From NCBI GenBank assembly GCA_963609095.1, contig CAVDHX010000024.1:7126-71125 (forward strand): a DNA stretch of 64,000 nt. Direction: 5' to 3'. This DNA comes from Sphaerochaetaceae bacterium (GTDB lineage Bacteria; Bacillota_I; Bacilli_A; RF39; UBA660). Shown piece by piece: positions 20,381 to 28,691 of this stretch. The number at the start of each line of letters is the position of its first letter. Position 1 is the first letter of the stretch. A program made the position numbers and the translations under genes. A model generated the notes under the pieces. The model worked only from the letters and a program-made list of their open reading frames with translations. It was not told the DNA's origin and made no database searches.

Positions 20381-20466
20381 GCATGGATGGCGGAATGGTA
20401 GACGCGCTACTTTGAGGGGGTAGTGAGATATATCTCATGCGAGTTCAAGTCTCGTTCCATGCACCA
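20381..20466 (+). tRNA. tRNA-Leu (anticodon GAG), with encoded CCA
   Basis: Folds as a cloverleaf: acceptor gcatgga/tccatgc, D-arm GCGG-AATGGTAG-ACGC. The anticodon stem is ctact/ggtag with loop ttGAGgg. It has a long variable arm and T-arm gcgag-TTCAAGT-ctcgt. Closely parallels E. coli/Bacillus tRNA-Leu. Confidence 0.9.
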
Positions 20467-20885: not shown

Positions 20886-21332
20886 TTAGAAAATGGTACC
20901 AGAATTTAAAACTTTATTTATGATTATGAAAATGGGATTAGCTGAAGTACAAACAGGTAAATTAGATACTGATTTATCAAAAATTGCAAAGCTAATCTCT
21001 TTTTCATTATAAGTATAGTTATCTTTTTGATATGATAATTTAAGATAATAATCTAATATGTTTATATTATTAAGTGATGCTTCTTGATATTTTAAATAAG
21101 TTTGGATATATTTATCTGAGTACGCTTTAGGTCTAGAACCAAAATGTGATGCAATACAATGAGAAATATGGGATTCCATAGAGGATTTAATATCTGAATA
21201 TTTCATGGCAATAATACCTTTCCAATGTTTAATGATGTAGTTTTTATATTCAGTAATTTTATCTTTTCTTGTCTGTTTGTCCTTTGATTCAATAATCTCA
21301 TCTATAATTTTAATAAATTTTTTTTCTTTCAT
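20886..21332 (-). CDS. hypothetical protein, possibly a mobile-element (transposase-like) C-terminal remnant
   Basis: 148-156 aa ORF with no N-terminal catalytic region. The upstream 21357-21560 holds broken coding-like sequence. Sits next to the tRNA. Confidence 0.3.
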   Translation of the reverse strand: MKEKKFIKIIDEIIESKDKQTRKDKITEYKNYIIKHWKGIIAMKYSDIKSSMESHISHCIASHFGSRPKAYSDKYIQTYLKYQEASLNNINILDYYLKLSYQKDNYTYNEKEISFAIFDKSVSNLPVCTSANPIFIIINKVLNSGTIF

Positions 21333-21671
21333 CTGATTTTTTATAAGCCTTATCAATTAAGAAAATGAAGTCAACTATTAATTCAATAACCATCTCATTA
21401 ATTTCTTTTTGTAAATTCAAAAAAGAGTCTATGTATCTATGCGTTGATAAATTGTTAAAAATTGAATTTAAAATATCAATTAGTTTATATTTATTTTTTT
21501 TAAGGCCATATTAATATAAAAATTTTTTGTTTCATAATTTAAAATCTGTGATAAAATATTCGTAGAAAGAGCTCCTTTTTATTGTATTTATAGTGATATT
21601 ATATCACACTGAGTTCTTTCTTTTTTTTATTTTTTCCGATACTATGTTGCATTATCACTTATGCAAAATGA

Positions 21672-21700
21672 TTGACTAAAATGGAAATATATGGTACATT
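21672..21700 (+). promoter_or_regulatory. sigma-A-type promoter for the peptide/MccB-like operon
   Basis: TTGACT - 17 nt - TACATT. Confidence 0.45.
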
Positions 21701-21755
21701 AATTATAACTTGATGGAGCTGTTATTTCTATTAAGTGCGAAAGGTGGTTAAAACA

Positions 21756-21821
21756 TGAAAATTAGTGTTAAAAAATTAGCTGAAACACAATTTGCTTGCC
21801 ACGTAGATCAAAATTGCTAAT
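21756..21821 (+). CDS. candidate 21-aa precursor peptide MKISVKKLAETQFACHVDQNC
   Basis: An RBS (AAAGGTGG) lies 6 nt upstream of the ATG. The ORF is followed at once by a 9-bp stem hairpin and is directly upstream of an MccB-like enzyme. Confidence 0.45.
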
Positions 21822-21836
21822 TGATGCTAAACATTA

Positions 21837-21858
21837 AAGCCCATCTTCATGGGCTTTA
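21837..21858 (+). terminator. intra-operon hairpin, possibly a partial terminator or attenuator, between the peptide ORF and the MccB-like gene
   Basis: aaagcccat-cttc-atgggcttt, followed by a weak U-tract. Confidence 0.45.
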
Positions 21859-21889
21859 ATGTGTTTATAAAGGTATAAAGGAGATTTTT

Positions 21890-22939
21890 ATGAGAGTATT
21901 AATAAATCCTACTAAGCCATTTTATTTAAATGAAATCAAAAAATCAATCAGATGTGGTAATTTTTCAGAAACAGGGAAAGTAATTGATTATGAAGATGAA
22001 ATGTTTGTTAGTTTTTTTAAAGAACTGTCAAAATTTATTGACGTTAAAGATTTAGAAAATATTGCAAAAACTAAATATTCAATGAGTAGTAAGGATTTTA
22101 ACGAAATATTAAAATATTTGATGAATGAAAAATTTGTTATTACTGATGATGAATATAATAAAATATATAATTATGATAAATTATATAATAGACAAAATGC
22201 TTATTTCTTTATGGTGTCAGATGATAATAAAAATATTGATTTATATAAAAACAAAAATATTTTAATTTTAGGATTAGGAGGAATAGGCTCTAATGTTGCT
22301 GAACAATTAGTAAGAGCTGGGTTTTCTAATTTTATGCTTGTGGATTGTGATATTGTTGAAAGTTCTAATTTAATTAGACAAAATGCTTATTATTCAGATG
22401 ATATTGGTATGTCTAAAACTACTGCGTTATCAAGAAGATTAATGTTAATAAACAGTAGTATAAAAGTTAATAAATACAACACAAAAATATTTTCTAAAGC
22501 TGATGTGTTACAATATATAGAAAAAGCAGATTTCGTAATTTGTACTTTGGATAAACCATATAGAAAAATTAGAAGAATTATAAATTCAGCATGTGTAAAA
22601 TGTAATAAACCTGTTATTTTTTCCGGATTTGCTGAACACGTCGGTATGGTTGGACCTTTTGTTGTTCCTTATACAACCGCTTGTTTAGAATGTATAGATA
22701 AGCAAGATGCCGAAATACCATTTCAAAATGTAAAAATTGCTCCTTCGTTTGGACCTTTATGTAACATCATTTCTTGCATTGTAACAGCGGAAGTGATAAA
22801 TTATTTTGTAAAATATAATTCGTATAATTTAATAGGATGTACTTTAATGTTTAATATGATTAACTATAAAACGGAAATTATTAAATGGTATAAAAATCCG
22901 TCATGTAAAAAGTGTGGTGATAAAAATGATAGTAAGTAA
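21890..22939 (+). CDS. MccB-like ThiF/E1-family peptide adenylyltransferase
   Basis: 349 aa. An N-terminal ~100-aa extension (peptide-clamp-like) precedes the Rossmann motif ILILGLGGIGSNVAEQLVRAGF...LVDCDIVESSNLIRQ. VGPFVVPYTTACLEC (CxxC) and a C-terminal SCKKCGDK (CxxC) mirror the MccB FGPLYVPGKTGCYEC...CSVCGNRM tetracysteine. Confidence 0.8.
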   Translation: MRVLINPTKPFYLNEIKKSIRCGNFSETGKVIDYEDEMFVSFFKELSKFIDVKDLENIAKTKYSMSSKDFNEILKYLMNEKFVITDDEYNKIYNYDKLYNRQNAYFFMVSDDNKNIDLYKNKNILILGLGGIGSNVAEQLVRAGFSNFMLVDCDIVESSNLIRQNAYYSDDIGMSKTTALSRRLMLINSSIKVNKYNTKIFSKADVLQYIEKADFVICTLDKPYRKIRRIINSACVKCNKPVIFSGFAEHVGMVGPFVVPYTTACLECIDKQDAEIPFQNVKIAPSFGPLCNIISCIVTAEVINYFVKYNSYNLIGCTLMFNMINYKTEIIKWYKNPSCKKCGDKNDSK

Positions 22940-24545
22940 TTTAAGTAAAAATATTAGTGGAAGAGATTTACTTGATAATATGAGTTTTAGTTTAAATGTT
23001 GGCAATAAGGTTGGATTAATAGGTAAAAACGGTGTGGGGAAATCAACTTTGTTAAAAATTCTGTCTGGCGATTTACTTTGTGATTCTGGTAAGATTAATT
23101 TAAATGGTCAAAAGGTAAAAATGTTAAAACAAGAAATTTCTAAAGATGATTATGATTATAGTATTATTGATTATATAAAAAAAGAAAATAATATTTTAAA
23201 TCTCGAAAAAAGATTACACGAATTAGAAACAAATTTAAATGATGATAACATGGAAGAATATGGTGATATACTAGATCAATATTTAGGTTTAGATGGTTAT
23301 AATTTTGAAAATAATTTAGGAATGGTTTTAAATGGCCTTAAATTAGATATAGATATTAATAAAAAAGTCGAAACATTATCTGGAGGACAAAAGATAAAAA
23401 TATTACTTGCTAGTTTACTTTTAAGTAATGCTGATATATTACTTTTAGATGAACCTACCAATAATTTGGATATTGAAGCTATAGAATGGCTAGAAAATTA
23501 TCTTATAAAATTAGAAAAGCAAATGATAATTGTTTCTCATGATGAAGAATTCTTAAACAATGTAACTAATAAAATTTTTGAATTAGAAAATGGTAAAATT
23601 ACTGAATATAATTTAAGTTATTCTGATTATTTAAATTATAAAGATATGGAATATAATCATAAACTAGAACAATATGAACAAGCCCAAGAACAAAAGAAAA
23701 AAATAAAGGTCCAAATTCAAGAAGCTAAAGAATGGTCAAATAAAGGTTTCTCATCAAAAAAGAAAGATAATGATAAAATAGCCGCTAACTTTGCTAAAGA
23801 AAGAACTAAAAAAACATCTGCAAAAGTATCAGGATTATCAAAAGAACTGGAAAAAATAGAAATTGACTCTAATTTTAGAAAACGTGAAGCCATTAATTTT
23901 ACTGTAGATTACTCAGATATAACAGGAAATGGCGATATTTATATTGAAGATTTAGTATGTGGCTATAATGATTTTAAAATACCATCTATAAAAGTAGATA
24001 TTCCATTTGGAACTAGAATACAAATATACGGTAAAAATGGTAGTGGTAAAACGACATTTATAAAAACACTTTTAAATGAAATTAAACCTATTAGTGGAAA
24101 AGTATATATAGGAAATGATGTTAAATTTGGATATATTTCTCAAGATAGTTTAGAAACCAATTCTGCAAATCTTTCAATATATGATTATTTGTCACAAAAT
24201 ACTGGCATTGATAAGAGCATGTTGTTTAATATTCTTAATAAATTTCATATAGCGTATGAAGATAAAGATAAACCTTATTTGACTTTATCACCAGGTCAAA
24301 GGACTAGAGTCAATTTGGCTAAATTAGCTATAAATAAAATTAATACATTAATATTAGATGAAGCAACTAATCATTTAGATATAGAAGCAATTCATGTGCT
24401 AGAAGAAGTTATTGATACATTTAATGGAACAATCATTAGTATTTCTCATAATAGAGCTTTTAACGAATATTTAAAGTCTGATGTTATTTTAAATATTGAA
24501 GATGCTAGTTTGACATATCCAGATAAAAAAGTAAAAAAAAAATGA
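22926..24545 (+). CDS. ABC-F family ATPase (tandem NBDs, no TMD), ribosome-associated and ARE-like
   Basis: Two Walker A motifs (GKNGVGKST, GKNGSGKTT) and two signature/Walker B sets, joined by a ~90-aa charged linker. Its ATG overlaps the upstream stop by 14 nt, with a GGTGA RBS. Confidence 0.85.
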   Translation: MIVSNLSKNISGRDLLDNMSFSLNVGNKVGLIGKNGVGKSTLLKILSGDLLCDSGKINLNGQKVKMLKQEISKDDYDYSIIDYIKKENNILNLEKRLHELETNLNDDNMEEYGDILDQYLGLDGYNFENNLGMVLNGLKLDIDINKKVETLSGGQKIKILLASLLLSNADILLLDEPTNNLDIEAIEWLENYLIKLEKQMIIVSHDEEFLNNVTNKIFELENGKITEYNLSYSDYLNYKDMEYNHKLEQYEQAQEQKKKIKVQIQEAKEWSNKGFSSKKKDNDKIAANFAKERTKKTSAKVSGLSKELEKIEIDSNFRKREAINFTVDYSDITGNGDIYIEDLVCGYNDFKIPSIKVDIPFGTRIQIYGKNGSGKTTFIKTLLNEIKPISGKVYIGNDVKFGYISQDSLETNSANLSIYDYLSQNTGIDKSMLFNILNKFHIAYEDKDKPYLTLSPGQRTRVNLAKLAINKINTLILDEATNHLDIEAIHVLEEVIDTFNGTIISISHNRAFNEYLKSDVILNIEDASLTYPDKKVKKK

Positions 24546-24675
24546 AAAAAGTATAAATATTATATAGAGTTGATGCAAATATTTTTTAACATTATAATTA
24601 ATACATCAAATACAATTGAACTTTTTACCAAAGTATGCATAGTCTCTTCAGTAAACTCTCCATTATGAAATTAAC

Positions 24676-24700
24676 CCTTGAATATCAAGGACTTTTTTTT
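24676..24700 (+). terminator. Rho-independent terminator after the ABC-F gene
   Basis: ccttga-ata-tcaagg followed by a T8 run. Confidence 0.6.
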
Positions 24701-25155
24701 ATGTTTTAATTTAATTAGGTACAAATCAAGTATATTTTTACAATTAACTTTTTCCTCCTAGCTTATTTTAGTTGAATTTTAACCATTGTATTGTTTATAA
24801 TCAACTTATAGAGTAAGGGGTTGTTTTTGTATATCCGAAATCATTTTACATTATCAGATGAAAAGTCTGATGTTATTTATATTTATGATAATATAGTTGT
24901 TTTTTGTGTTGGGCAAATCGAACAATAAAATTATGATAAAGCATATAGTAGATATAAAAATAGTGTTTTAACGTGGAAGAACAATTTGTGAAATCATATT
25001 TATATTAAAAATTTATAAAAGTATTAAAAAGAATTACTGTATAAAAAATTGCTGTCATTATGTTAGTATTTTTTTCATTCAACAATTATATTTTAATTTG
25101 AAATATGCTATTTTAAAGTCCTATTGATAAAGTTATAATTATGAATTTTTTGGTT

Positions 25156-25584
25156 TTAATTTAATATGTAAATGCCATACGTTAAGTATGATGCAAATAA
25201 TAACCATATTATGTATGGTATATTAATATATGCTGATATTTTATTTACCTTGTAAAATTTATAAATCATTATTACGACAATTATTAGTAATATTATAATC
25301 CAAATTAATGCGAATAAATACCATTTAAATATGAAGAAGATAATTGGCCAAATACCATTTATGATTAAATTTGTATAGTATATTTCTTTGTTTTTGTTGT
25401 TTTGTAAATAAAAACTTATACCCATTAAAATGTATAAAATAGTCCATGCAATTGGAAAGATAATTCCTGGTGGTGAAAATAAAGGCTTTGATATATTTTG
25501 ATAATTCATAAATGGACTTATAATTATTCCTATAAAGATACCCATAATTAATGGTATAGCTATATTTTTTAATAAATTTTTCAT
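25156..25584 (-). CDS. tspO: TspO/MBR family tryptophan-rich sensory protein
   Basis: 142-aa 5-TM protein carrying PPGIIFPIAWTILYILMG, which matches the TspO PxWxFxPxWT(x)LY motif. Confidence 0.7.
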   Translation of the reverse strand: MKNLLKNIAIPLIMGIFIGIIISPFMNYQNISKPLFSPPGIIFPIAWTILYILMGISFYLQNNKNKEIYYTNLIINGIWPIIFFIFKWYLFALIWIIILLIIVVIMIYKFYKVNKISAYINIPYIIWLLFASYLTYGIYILN

Positions 25585-25657
25585 GTTATCACCTATTATT
25601 ATAATATGTAAATGACAAAAAAATATAATTGTATTATAATATTTTACGTAGAGAGGA

Positions 25658-26011
25658 TTGATATTAATGGGGATGCTTACAAAGAGTAATAGGAATGAAG
25701 ATGATTTGTTAACTTTAAATTTAAATGATAGGAATTTTTCTATTTCTTTTGATAATGTTGAAAGGAAAATAAAATTAAATGAGAAAAGCTCAATTTTATT
25801 AGAAAAAGCTATTAAACAAAATTGTTTTTTAATTAAAAATGATAAATTGATTAAGGTAGGTAATTATAAAATAGTTTTAAAGAATGATGATGTAAGTAAG
25901 CTATGGTTAAAATCATTTGATAAATTAGTAGAATATAAGTTAATATTAAAAAATAATTCAAATTATATAGTTTCTGATAAAGGGAAAAAATATTTTAGAG
26001 AATATTGTTAA
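25658..26011 (+). CDS. hypothetical protein
   Basis: 117-aa ORF divergent from tspO. No recognisable motifs. Confidence 0.35.
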   Translation: MILMGMLTKSNRNEDDLLTLNLNDRNFSISFDNVERKIKLNEKSSILLEKAIKQNCFLIKNDKLIKVGNYKIVLKNDDVSKLWLKSFDKLVEYKLILKNNSNYIVSDKGKKYFREYC

Positions 26012-26095
26012 CATTATTTTTATAAATAATGTTTTTTTGTTTTTTTGAAGGAATTTGCAATTTTACGTCGTATATTAATAAGTGAGGAGGTTAAA

Positions 26096-26782
26096 ATGGA
26101 AATATTGAATATTATAAATCTAACAAAGAAATATAAAAATGGAACTGATGAATTGTATGCATTAGATAATATTAATTTTAAAGTAAAAAAGGGTGAATTT
26201 GTTATTATAACTGGTAAAAGTGGAAGTGGTAAAAGTACTCTTTTACACTTAATAGGGGGATTAGATTTTCCAACAAGTGGAACTGTTTTGGTTAATAATA
26301 CAGATATTTATAAGTTAAATGATAAAAATTTGACTATTTTTAGAAGAAAGTATATTGGAATTATATATCAATTTTATAATTTAATTCCTGTTTTGAATGT
26401 TTTTGAAAATATTATTTTACCGGCTTTATTTGATAAAAGAAAAATAAATGAAGAAAAAATTAATAATTTATTAAATAAATTAGGACTTAATGGTAAGAAT
26501 GATTATTTGCCAAATGATTTATCAGGTGGTGAACAACAAAGAGTTGCGATTGCTAGAGCTTTAATTAATCGGCCTAAATTGGTTTTAGCTGATGAACCAA
26601 CTGGGGCTTTAGATAGTAAAAATAGTAAATATATAATGAAATTATTAAGGTTTTATAATAAGAAATATAAGCAAACTATTATTATGGTAACTCACGATAC
26701 TTCTTTAGTTAGTTATGCCGATAGAATAATAACTATGTCTGATGGTAAGATAGAAAAGGATATTATTAATGATAAGCATTAA
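26096..26782 (+). CDS. ABC transporter ATP-binding protein (MacB/BceA-like)
   Basis: Walker A GKSGSGKST, signature LSGGEQQRVAIARAL, Walker B LVLADEPTGALD. RBS GAGGAGG. Confidence 0.85.
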   Translation: MEILNIINLTKKYKNGTDELYALDNINFKVKKGEFVIITGKSGSGKSTLLHLIGGLDFPTSGTVLVNNTDIYKLNDKNLTIFRRKYIGIIYQFYNLIPVLNVFENIILPALFDKRKINEEKINNLLNKLGLNGKNDYLPNDLSGGEQQRVAIARALINRPKLVLADEPTGALDSKNSKYIMKLLRFYNKKYKQTIIMVTHDTSLVSYADRIITMSDGKIEKDIINDKH

Positions 26783-28691
26783 ATTTTTAAAGAAAAATAA
26801 AAAGCAAACAATTACTATGGTTATGGGCATTATTTTATCAAGTGTTTTACTTTTTAGTATTGGCATTTTATTTTCTTCATTTAGAAATTTTATGATAGAA
26901 GATGTTAAAAAAAATGTTGGAAATTATCATGTAAAAATAGTTGGTAATATAAATGATGTAGATAAAAAACAAATTTTAAGTATAAAGAAAAAAAATGAGT
27001 ATTATATAAGATTTAAAAATATAAAAAATGTATATAGTTATACTGAAAATATTTGTGAAAAAAATCAATGTTTAGAGGTTATTTATAATACAAAATTGCT
27101 TTCTTTATATGGTGTTACTGATAATGATAATTTATTAAGTATATTCAAGAAAATTATAACGTTAATTGTTTTGATTTTATCGTTGGCTGTGTTTTTTATT
27201 GTTTATAATTCTTTTAATATTTCTTTAGTAAAACAAAAGCGAGATATATTTTTACTTAAAGTAAGTGGAGCTGATAATAGGTGCTTGTATAAAATTTATT
27301 TTTTTCAAGGAATTATTGTTGGATTGATTGGCATAATAATTGGTTTTTTAGTAAGTATGGTTATGAATATTTTTTCAATAAAGTTTATTAATTTGTTTTT
27401 ATATGAATTTTTTAGAGGAAGTTTAAAATTATCTATTTATTTTGATTTTATTTTAATACCGTTTTTTTTTATAATATTAATTGTTTTTTTGTCATCTTTA
27501 TTTCCACTTAGAAATTTGAATAAATATAAGATTGTTGATTTATATAATCCTATAAAAAACAATTATATAAATAAATATGATTTTAGGAAAAACTTTGTTT
27601 TAAATTATTCTCTTATAAATTATGAACGTGAGAAGCATAATTATAGAAATTTAATTATATGTTTATTTATCCTCTTATTTCTTTTTAATAGTTTTTTTTC
27701 GTTTATGCGATATACTTTTAAAATAATTAATGATTATGTTATTCTTCCAGAATATGATTTGTTAGTAAAAGCAGATATTGACGTGGTTAAAGATATTGAT
27801 AGAAAATTGGTTCCTAGTAAGTCTATTATATATAATTCATGTAATGGAAAGGTTCAAATAGCTAAAGATAAGTTTAATAAAAATCAAAAAGTGGGTAATG
27901 CTTTAATAACTAATTTAGGTGGTAATGAATTAATTAATTTTGTTTTTGAGGTAAAAAGTGAAAATGATTTGATGGTTAAAAATAATTATATTCCTTTTAA
28001 CAAATTGGATAAGGTTATATTGAATGATGAAAAATTATCTATTTCTTTAACTAATAAAATACCATTTGGATTTAAATCTTTATTAAAAAGTGATATTGTA
28101 ATTTTGAATTTAGATAATAATAATTTTTCTAAATTTTGTTTAAATTATGATACCATTGGTTATTTTAAAACTGATAAAAGTAATCTTGATGTATTTTTAA
28201 ATAATTATGCTATAAAAAATAATGTTGATTTAATTTATAGTAATGTTAAAAAAGCTAAACAAATTATTTCAAATATTGTTTTATTGATTAAAGTATTTAT
28301 TTATTTAATTATAGTTTTAATAATTTTAATATGTGTTACAACTATTTTTAATATTGTATCGGCTAATATTAAGTTTAGAAAAAGGGAACTTGCAAATTTA
28401 AAATCATTAGGTTTTTTAAATGTTAATATTGTTGAATTGTTATGCTTAGAATGTTTTATTATTACATTTAAAGCTTTTATTTATGCTTTACCATTTATTT
28501 TACTTGTATTTAAGTTTTTTTATAATAATCTTGGCAAAGTATTTAAATTAAATTTATCTATTTTTGATTATGAGCTTTTAACTGTAAGTTTTGTATTGTG
28601 TTTAATCATAGTTATTATATGTATGCTTTTAAGTTATATGTCTTTAATGAAGGAAAGTTTAATTATAAATATAAAACAGGAAATTTTTTAA
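26769..28691 (+). CDS. FtsX-family ABC permease with two FtsX modules and large extracytoplasmic domains (BceB-like)
   Basis: 640-aa polytopic membrane protein. It overlaps the ATPase gene. Confidence 0.7.

Follow-up and report, generated by a model that had tools for sequence, protein, structure and literature searches.

ABC-F proteins whose genes lie in antibiotic biosynthetic clusters shield the producers of ribosome-targeting antibiotics (PMC8546547). Their presence in such clusters reliably points to ribosome-targeting products, which so far have been small molecules of actinomycetes only. Among the ThiF-type enzymes that modify short peptides, GrcB joins Glu35 to the C-terminal Cys39 of its substrate as a thiolactone (PMC12250964, PMC12596934), and the precursor types described or predicted for such enzymes are WWIII, NWYFI, VEGR, NICxxxK, CxxxC, and GxxQY (PMC11256085). 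We analysed an ABC-F gene that overlaps the gene of a ThiF enzyme with the fold of MccB, the adenylyltransferase of the microcin C operon. The pair lies in a 64,000-nt stretch of contig CAVDHX010000024.1 (assembly GCA_963609095.1, Sphaerochaetaceae bacterium), hereafter called the window. In a conserved, horizontally mobile operon of three genes, the ABC-F gene is the third and a dedicated member, not a captured housekeeping gene. Cluster-encoded ABC-F self-resistance is already known; what is new here is that an ABC-F is the only partner of a pathway for a ribosomal peptide, that it occurs in gut Bacillota, and that it belongs to a separate subfamily.

The transcription unit is ordered promoter, precursor, hairpin, ThiF, ABC-F, terminator. 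Its features in the window, numbered from the first nucleotide of the window, are given below (NBD, nucleotide-binding domain; RRE, recognition element of RiPPs, the peptides that ribosomes make and that are modified after translation).

21672–21700, plus strand: promoter-like site 5' of the precursor gene (TTGACT, 17 nt, TACATT with TG as an extended −10; 9/12 match)
21755–21820, plus strand: 21-codon precursor gene, MKISVKKLAETQFACHVDQNC, with ribosome-binding site AAAGGTGG, 69 nt 5' of the ThiF gene
21831–21862, plus strand: 14-bp hairpin, ACATTAAAGCCCAT-CTTC-ATGGGCTTTAATGT, between the precursor and ThiF genes
21890–22939, plus strand: ThiF/E1-type adenylyltransferase of 349 amino acids (aa) with an N-terminal peptide-binding (RRE/clamp) domain and the MccB fold (Pfam ThiF, 2e-48)
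22916–22920, plus strand: GGTGA Shine–Dalgarno-like motif within the 3' end of the ThiF gene, 5 nt ahead of the ABC-F ATG
22926–24545, plus strand: ABC-F ATPase gene, 539 aa, consisting of NBD1 with an arm, a 105-residue helical-hairpin linker, NBD2, and a short C-terminus
23619–23855, plus strand: region encoding the linker hairpin, residues 232–310 (helix 232–272, tip loop 273–282, helix 283–310; AlphaFold2)
24676–24700, plus strand: terminator-like hairpin with a T run, 130 nt past the ABC-F stop codon, at the end of the three-gene operon

Across loci, the module consists of a 20–21-aa open reading frame (ORF) ending in F-x-C-H-V-D-Q-(N/H)-C, a hairpin, a two-domain ThiF gene of ~345 aa, and an ABC-F gene of ~540 aa that overlaps or abuts the ThiF stop codon. 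The three genes span about 2.8 kb. The full module was present in the window, in 10 related loci (numbered here with the prefix L: L002, L009, L013, L016, L019, L024, L142, L144, L145, and L147), and in 24 metagenome loci.

We assessed the linkage of the ABC-F gene to the ThiF gene across genomes. A ThiF gene was found directly 5' of the ABC-F gene in eight of the nine ABC-F clusters sampled (57–92% identity), and each of the eight ThiF-linked loci had another genomic neighbourhood.

L002, L009, and L019: neighbourhood of a heavy-metal ATPase
L013 and L145: neighbourhood of sporulation genes
L016: neighbourhood of a Mob/integrase element
L142: module inside a penicillin-binding protein (PBP) gene, with a large serine recombinase
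L144: neighbourhood of a MacB-type transporter

In total, the trio was found in at least 11 unrelated genomic contexts, down to 43–45% identity. The ThiF gene was kept at 50% identity, in a metagenome-assembled genome (MAG) labelled Tenericutes, and at 45% identity, in a Clostridia MAG; an ABC-F relative at 38% identity had no ThiF gene. The most divergent ThiF family member tested (43–44%) was also followed by an ABC-F gene, and the identities of the two proteins co-varied from locus to locus. A scan of metagenome contigs for DNA encoding CHVDQNC and a stop codon yielded 32 loci, in which ThiF came after the precursor wherever the contig left room. For the family with 20/21-aa precursors, ABC-F came directly after ThiF in 24 of the 25 assessable metagenome loci. 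Relatives were labelled Tenericutes, Bacilli, or Clostridia MAGs, and the module was widespread in human and animal gut metagenomes. A profile search of genome contigs with the ABC-F alignment returned mostly proteobacterial YbiT-like genes (28–32%) through universal motifs (LLDEPTNN, LSGGQKIK) and was useful only for L024–L026.

Several metagenome copies had disrupted ThiF or ABC-F frames (L108, L114, L116, L117, L128, and L134). In L142 (2499–9606; also in L143), the module, a 66-aa ORF, and the gene of a 541-aa large serine recombinase were located between the two halves of a PBP gene (357 aa and 281 aa). This insertion looks like an intervening mobile element bearing the module.

The sole unlinked copy among the nine sampled was the ABC-F of cluster P0010 (L006, 72% identical), which had no ThiF gene. 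This protein nested with the window protein inside the ThiF-linked clade with 97% bootstrap support. The last ~17 ThiF codons remain directly 5' of its ATG (L006 7950–8003): the scar reads IIKWDKDILCKKCGESK-stop, where the ThiF gene of the window ends in IIKWYKNPSCKKCGDKNDSK-stop. The DNA 5' of the scar was unrelated and had a promoter-like site (TTGACT-17-TAAAAT). The nested position and the scar together indicate that the ABC-F gene stayed behind when the genes of the precursor and the enzyme were lost by deletion. Judged from its sequence context, the L006 gene looks like an orphan immunity gene.

The initial annotation of this locus had overlooked the conserved precursor. The same small ORF was detected 5' of ThiF in every related locus long enough to show a precursor. 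We found at least 23 leader variants, all of which share the pattern M-x-x-x-V-K-K-[LVI]-x-x-x-K-F-x and continue into C-H-V-D-Q-N-C-stop. All of the precursor variants (at least 25) had a C-terminal Cys; the penultimate residue was Asn, but His in L144. Among loci found via the ABC-F or ThiF protein and not via the peptide, the core was CHVDQNC in 10 of 11 and CHVDQHC in the remaining one. Four of the seven core codons differed between the window and L009, and every change was synonymous, which indicates that the precursor is under protein-level selection.

The spacer between the precursor and ThiF genes held a hairpin in nearly all related loci, of differing sequence and usually with a T run. 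Its stem often started 0–13 nt past the precursor stop codon (most loci). In the window, the fold of 21740–21895 had a free energy of −36.9 kcal/mol (z = −3.2); a strong T run was absent there, and the terminator scan did not call the hairpin. We regard it as a putative partial terminator or attenuator. The terminator-like site after ABC-F (24676–24690) was the sole one in 21400–25700 (0.5 expected). The promoter-like site is a consensus match only, and such sites occur at chance level in the region; equivalent sites (TTGACT/TTGACA-17-TAAATT/TAAAAT) were visible 5' of the precursor in L002 and L147.

The upstream gene had been described as MccB-like, and both its sequence and its predicted structure agree with this. 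MccB was the best PDB sequence match of the ThiF protein (E 7e-32). The AlphaFold2 model (pLDDT 92) matched MccB over both domains in Foldseek (TM 0.81–0.83, about 356 columns), and PaaA was the next-best fold match (TM 0.74). The protein has a CxxC...CxxC zinc motif and the N-terminal invariants Y12 and G23-N24-F25. It is an MccB-type enzyme, with an N-terminal clamp and a ThiF adenylation domain. The annotated junction of the two genes also held up: the ABC-F ATG at 22926 lies 14 nt inside the 349-codon ThiF ORF (TAA at 22937–22939), preceded by GGTGA, and the overlap is conserved among related loci. Most of these had an 11–14-nt overlap and a purine-rich GGTG/GAGG motif; the exceptions were a 4-nt overlap in L147 and a 1-nt gap in L009, L113, and L132. 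As GGTGA is encoded by Gly-Asp codons of the CxxCG zinc motif at the ThiF C-terminus, conservation of the ribosome-binding motif is partly a coding constraint. An in-frame GTG exists at 22914, but the homologues all start with MIVxNL at the ATG.

The ABC-F ORF comprises 1620 nt (539 codons and a stop codon). It had 7960 homologues at E ≤ 1e-30, the nearest 94% identical, and is therefore a real gene and not a chance ORF; a look-up of the exact protein sequence had no match. A domain scan detected two ABC_tran domains and an ABC_tran_Xtn linker domain, and no membrane domain. Both Walker A and both Walker B motifs were present, as were both catalytic Glu residues (LLLDEPTNNLD, LILDEATNHLD), with the NBD signatures LSGGQ and LSPGQ. 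In the AlphaFold2 model (pLDDT 85), the two domains were bridged by a helical hairpin. The closest folds were all ribosome-bound ABC-F proteins (PoxtA, EttA, VmlR2, and YbiT; TM 0.6–0.7). The protein is thus an ABC-F with tandem NBDs, a helical linker, and no transmembrane domain, as had been annotated.

The clade of the window ABC-F is isolated. Among 1.84 billion representatives of 50%-identity clusters, only two full-length ones were 49–53% identical to it; beyond these, we found relatives at 40–42% identity and then a continuum from about 37% downward. All ABC-F genes on 72,556 plasmids were ≤33% identical. Scores against NCBIfam models are given below in bits, each followed by the cut-off of the model.

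Housekeeping models: EttA 276/599, Uup 266/900, YbiT-like 291/762, YheS-like 243–255/917–936
Resistance models: Vga 284/725, producers (ARE5) 256/800, Msr 253/680, Sal 251/725, Lsa 212/750, OptrA 199/1450

Only the generic model NF000355, 'ribosomal protection-like ABC-F', had its cut-off exceeded (390 vs. 380 bits); this match was rejected as diagnostic, because the same model gives a 634-aa Uup-like protein 433 bits. We placed the protein on a neighbour-joining tree (44 sequences, 510 columns, 100 bootstraps; VmlR, Lsa, and Sal were outside the reference set, and deep branches were weak). The ThiF-linked ABC-Fs formed a monophyletic clade with 100% bootstrap support, which sat in a larger group of uncharacterised long-linker ABC-Fs, also with 100% support. 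The clade was placed apart from EttA, Uup, YbiT, and YheS of E. coli and apart from OptrA, Vga(A), Msr(A), Msr(E), and the ARE5 protein. A phylogeny had been proposed to separate antibiotic resistance (ARE) from housekeeping families; on this tree, the clade lies outside the tested EttA/Uup/YbiT/YheS and groups with none of the tested ARE families (Vga, Msr, OptrA, and ARE5). Relatives at 35–42% identity (P0124, P0128, and others) had in common the linker-tip motif D-N/H-D-K and, in NBD2, the signature LSPGE/Q.

The interdomain linker, whose comparison had been proposed along with the phylogeny, turned out to be an ARE-type extended linker with an insertion at its tip relative to EttA-type factors. 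From Walker B of NBD1 to Walker A of NBD2, members of the clade had 196–201 residues, EttA, Uup, YbiT, YheS, and OptrA 173–176, and Msr(A), Vga(A), and ARE5 205–208. In an alignment made without VmlR, Lsa, and Sal, the linker proper had 105 residues, compared with 79–83 in EttA/Uup/YbiT/YheS/OptrA and 109–114 in VgaA/MsrA/MsrE/ARE5. The extra residues (NKGFSSKKKDNDKIAANFAKERTKK) are at the hairpin tip, where the insertions of Vga, Msr, and ARE5 also lie. Among 32 clade members, conservation of the tip (0.83) equalled that of the NBD1 catalytic core and exceeded that of the flanking helices (0.68–0.69). The conserved tip reads KDNDK, with D281, D283, and K284 invariant. Like EttA and ARE5, the window protein has the NBD1 arm, which Vga and Msr lack.

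No other candidate immunity or export gene was found in the operon, between the promoter-like and terminator-like sites. Of the readings considered, self-immunity by target protection explains the ABC-F best, and we hold it to be about as likely as not; if it is right, the product of the module would act on the large ribosomal subunit. In its favour are the linkage to ThiF and the co-divergence of the two proteins, the isolated monophyletic clade, the orphan in L006, the linker architecture, the lack of another candidate in the operon, and the precedent of ABC-Fs in antibiotic clusters. In this scheme, the N-terminal clamp domain of the enzyme would bind the Lys-rich peptide leader, and the enzyme would adenylate a carboxylate within the core, CHVDQ(N/H)C, leading to cyclisation or nucleotidylation. 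By analogy with ThiF-type enzymes, candidate outcomes are a thiolactone, an imide, or a nucleotidylated end. Since the ABC-F start lies inside the last enzyme codons, the ABC-F would be made whenever the enzyme is made. Like ARE-type ABC-Fs, it might bind in the E site of the ribosome while in the ATP state, with the extended hairpin reaching toward the peptidyl-transferase centre or the tunnel entrance and displacing or excluding the product of the module; ATP hydrolysis would then free it from the ribosome. The hairpin by the precursor stop codon could, again by analogy, tie ThiF and ABC-F expression to slow termination. A more specific version seems possible but somewhat less probable than immunity as such. 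In this version, a so far undescribed ThiF-dependent peptide with a CHVDQ(N/H)C end would inhibit the large subunit at or near the peptidyl-transferase centre, and the ABC-F, dedicated to a ribosomal peptide, would be the first immunity factor of its kind to act by target protection and would make up a new resistance subfamily in gut Bacillota, sometimes found as an orphan. A cyclic heptapeptide is one possible product; another is a peptide, nucleotidylated at its C-terminus, that mimics the 3' end of peptidyl-tRNA.

Several points weigh against self-immunity. The ABC-F belongs to no named resistance subfamily: the specific resistance models (Vga, Msr, Lsa, Sal, OptrA, CplR, and ARE5) scored 149–284 bits against cut-offs of 680–1450. 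PDB searches by sequence and by fold did not split ARE proteins from housekeeping relatives, and the long linker is suggestive, in that it fits a resistance role without being diagnostic of one. Known ARE ABC-Fs counter small molecules, and we know of none for a ribosomally made peptide. A minimal module without an exporter is unusual for a secreted antibiotic, and the role may be intracellular or signalling. The core residues Cys, His, Asp, and Cys are typical metal ligands, and together with the adjoining heavy-metal ATPases in three lineages they may point to a metal-binding peptide. The exception among the metagenome loci, L130 (148–1469, on a 1.8× contig), has the precursor and ThiF, then rplM on the opposite strand, and no ABC-F; the contig represents a true variant without this gene or else is misassembled. 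Finally, a sister family (L112, L121, and L135) with 24-aa precursors has the same CHVDQNC core and no ABC-F. Its ThiF is only 28–33% identical, and the downstream ORF, which overlaps the ThiF stop codon, is hydrophobic. The genes 5' of it encode a major facilitator superfamily transporter, a helix-turn-helix regulator, and an M3 oligoendopeptidase F (PepF) (L135 2114–8348), and the contigs end soon after.

The main rival to self-immunity is a regulatory or translation-assisting ABC-F that resolves or senses stalling at the end of the precursor ORF and thereby tunes read-through into ThiF and ABC-F. We consider this role unlikely as the explanation of the operon; it is, however, compatible with immunity. 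It would be analogous to LmrC, which transduces a signal from the ribosome-bound antibiotic into cluster expression and thus signals beyond resistance (PMC8546547). The layout of the module fits, as attenuators of ABC-F resistance genes have as their standard arrangement a short ORF with a terminator-like hairpin behind it (PMC8546547). Moreover, with its stem mostly 0–13 nt past the precursor stop codon, the hairpin is within reach of a terminating ribosome, and its position is conserved while its sequence is not. On the other hand, the L006 ABC-F was kept after the loss of the precursor, hairpin, and ThiF, so it has value without an operon to regulate. The sister family also translates the same core without an ABC-F. 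Even if correct, a regulatory role does not exclude immunity, as LmrC does both.

We also considered a passenger gene, that is, a general resistance or housekeeping ABC-F that sits beside ThiF and is functionally unrelated to the peptide. The initial annotation had offered a captured housekeeping ABC-F as its fallback. The model scores leave some room for this, being roughly equidistant from housekeeping and resistance families (YbiT-like 291, Vga 284, EttA 276, Uup 266), as do the flat PDB scores and the generic NF000355 name, which has no functional weight. Nevertheless, we judge a passenger very improbable. The pair stays together, mostly with overlapping frames, in more than 10 unrelated neighbourhoods and to 43–45% identity. 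The clade is narrow and missing from the great majority of genomes, and the protein scores below the threshold of every housekeeping family. The initial annotation would have taken a conserved housekeeping ortholog in relatives without the MccB-like gene as refuting its reading; we looked for one and found that the lone ThiF-less relative, the L006 copy, carries the ThiF deletion scar. With sub-threshold scores, a narrow clade, shifting neighbourhoods, and a scar at the unlinked copy, the gene is not a housekeeping orthologue.

Least probable of all, and barely credible, is an ABC-F that powers peptide secretion as the energy subunit of a separate membrane partner such as the nearby MacB/FtsX-type transporters: these do lie within a few kb in the window (26045–28691), L009, L019, and L144, and the minimal module otherwise has no exporter, but they have their own ATPase domains or subunits, are absent within 5–8 kb in L002, L013, L016, L142, and L145, and are separated from the operon in the window by the terminator-like site and an opposite-strand TspO gene, and structural studies of Vga, Msr, Lsa, and VmlR have led ribosome protection to replace the efflux model for ABC-Fs. 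The MacB/FtsX transporters and the small proteins adjacent to them were also rejected as members of the module: the permeases and small proteins had no detectable homology between the window and the other loci, and many loci lack them.

The genes that follow the operon in the window are listed below.

25156–25584, minus strand: TspO/MBR family gene, followed by a 117-aa ORF without a family match
26045–26782: MacB-type ABC ATPase, followed by a 640-aa FtsX permease (26769–28691)

On the 5' side, a tRNA-Leu gene (20381–20463) is followed by a 156-aa remnant of an ISLre2-like transposase (minus strand, 20886–21356). GC content was 18–25% at 20.5–28.7 kb, a stretch that ends at rpsO-pnp, and 26–33% in the flanks. 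An att-type direct repeat of the tRNA-Leu gene bounding an island was looked for and not found; the GC dip and the transposase remnant alone hint at an island. An exact 17-nt repeat (24473/24862) was examined as what might be left of the 3' end of another ABC-F gene and was put down to chance, as 24546–25155 had no protein-level similarity. Among the related loci, genes of an ArsR-type regulator and of a P1B heavy-metal ATPase with an HMA domain lay just 5' of the module in L002 (3444–5769), L009 (3220–5584), and L019 (1–887). A TldD/PmbA protease pair was located about 400 nt 3' of ABC-F in L019 (10050–12690), and in that locus only. TldD/E processes some modified peptides.

If self-immunity is correct, the module would provide a new ribosome-active peptide scaffold from the microbiome and new chemistry of MccB-fold enzymes on a Cys-terminated core. 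It would also define a new ABC-F resistance subfamily whose conserved KDNDK linker tip is open to structural probing. It would then be an example of orphan ABC-F genes arising out of producer clusters, which bears on the origin of mobile resistance genes. The module is small enough for direct synthesis and testing.

We compared the module to the known systems that share parts of it. The microcin C operon likewise has a tiny precursor gene, an intergenic hairpin, and a two-domain adenylyltransferase of the MccB fold, as well as an immunity function in the same operon, which for the window is a prediction. In microcin C (mccA-mccB with mccC/E/F), the C-terminal residue is an obligatory Asn, required to form the succinimide and the N-P bond, in place of the Cys found here, and equivalents of MccC, MccD, MccE, and MccF were not present in the window operon. 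The candidate immunity gene here encodes an ABC-F, which would point to the ribosome and not to an aminoacyl-tRNA synthetase. This contrast of targets had been drawn in the initial annotation but does not apply as framed, as the precursor ends in Asn-Cys (His-Cys once) and not in Asn. Judging from the precursors, microcin C chemistry as such is excluded, given their terminal Cys and a penultimate position that is not always Asn; the cluster is MccB-like in enzyme fold only.

The other ThiF-type peptides (the GrcB thiolactone, the enterofaecin cyclic imide, the IndF indolylamide, and pantocin A) share with the module an RRE and a ThiF enzyme that acts on the C-terminal residues of a short precursor. 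The resemblance to GrcB extends to a C-terminal Cys and an acidic residue three positions upstream (D18...C21, compared with Glu35-Cys39). The CHVDQNC core falls outside the described and predicted precursor types, and there are no radical SAM partners here. Surveys of ThiF-type peptides (microcin C, pantocin A, GRC, enterofaecin, indolylamide, and predicted types) do not mention ABC-F and have no match to CHVDQNC. Searches of the literature for ABC-F with MccB, microcin C, or RiPP self-resistance, and for the peptide string HVDQNC, returned nothing relevant, and we found no description of the module.

Among ABC-Fs, the housekeeping factors EttA, Uup, YbiT, and YheS have the same domain order and fold, the arm (EttA), and PDB sequence scores similar to those of ARE proteins. 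They differ in that the window linker exceeds theirs by 22–26 residues, located at the tip, and in that the window clade is narrow, patchy, and tied to the ThiF gene or its scar. The mobile ARE proteins (Vga(A), Msr(A)/Msr(E), Lsa, Sal, VmlR, OptrA, and PoxtA) also have two NBDs, no membrane domain, both catalytic Glu residues, and an extended linker of the antibiotic-resistance-domain type (110–114 residues in Vga/Msr). However, the window ABC-F is ≤33% identical to any plasmid-borne ABC-F, Vga and Msr do not have its NBD1 arm, and the antibiotics that the mobile proteins counter have no established relation to the module.

The ARE5 proteins of antibiotic producers (LmrC, OleB, CarA, TlrC, SrmB, and VarM) resemble the window protein in being encoded inside the biosynthetic cluster of the compound that they presumably counter. 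They share the NBD1 arm, a long linker (109 residues vs. 105 here), and the tip insertion, and their transcription units likewise contain a small upstream ORF and a terminator-like hairpin (PMC8546547). The window ABC-F scored 256 bits against the ARE5 cut-off of 800 and did not group with the ARE5 reference on the tree. The hosts of ARE5 are actinomycetes, whereas those of the module are low-GC gut Bacillota. ARE5 genes belong to macrolide, lincosamide, and streptogramin clusters, whereas the module encodes a 21-aa ribosomal peptide, with the ABC-F as its only accessory gene, overlapping the gene of the biosynthetic enzyme.

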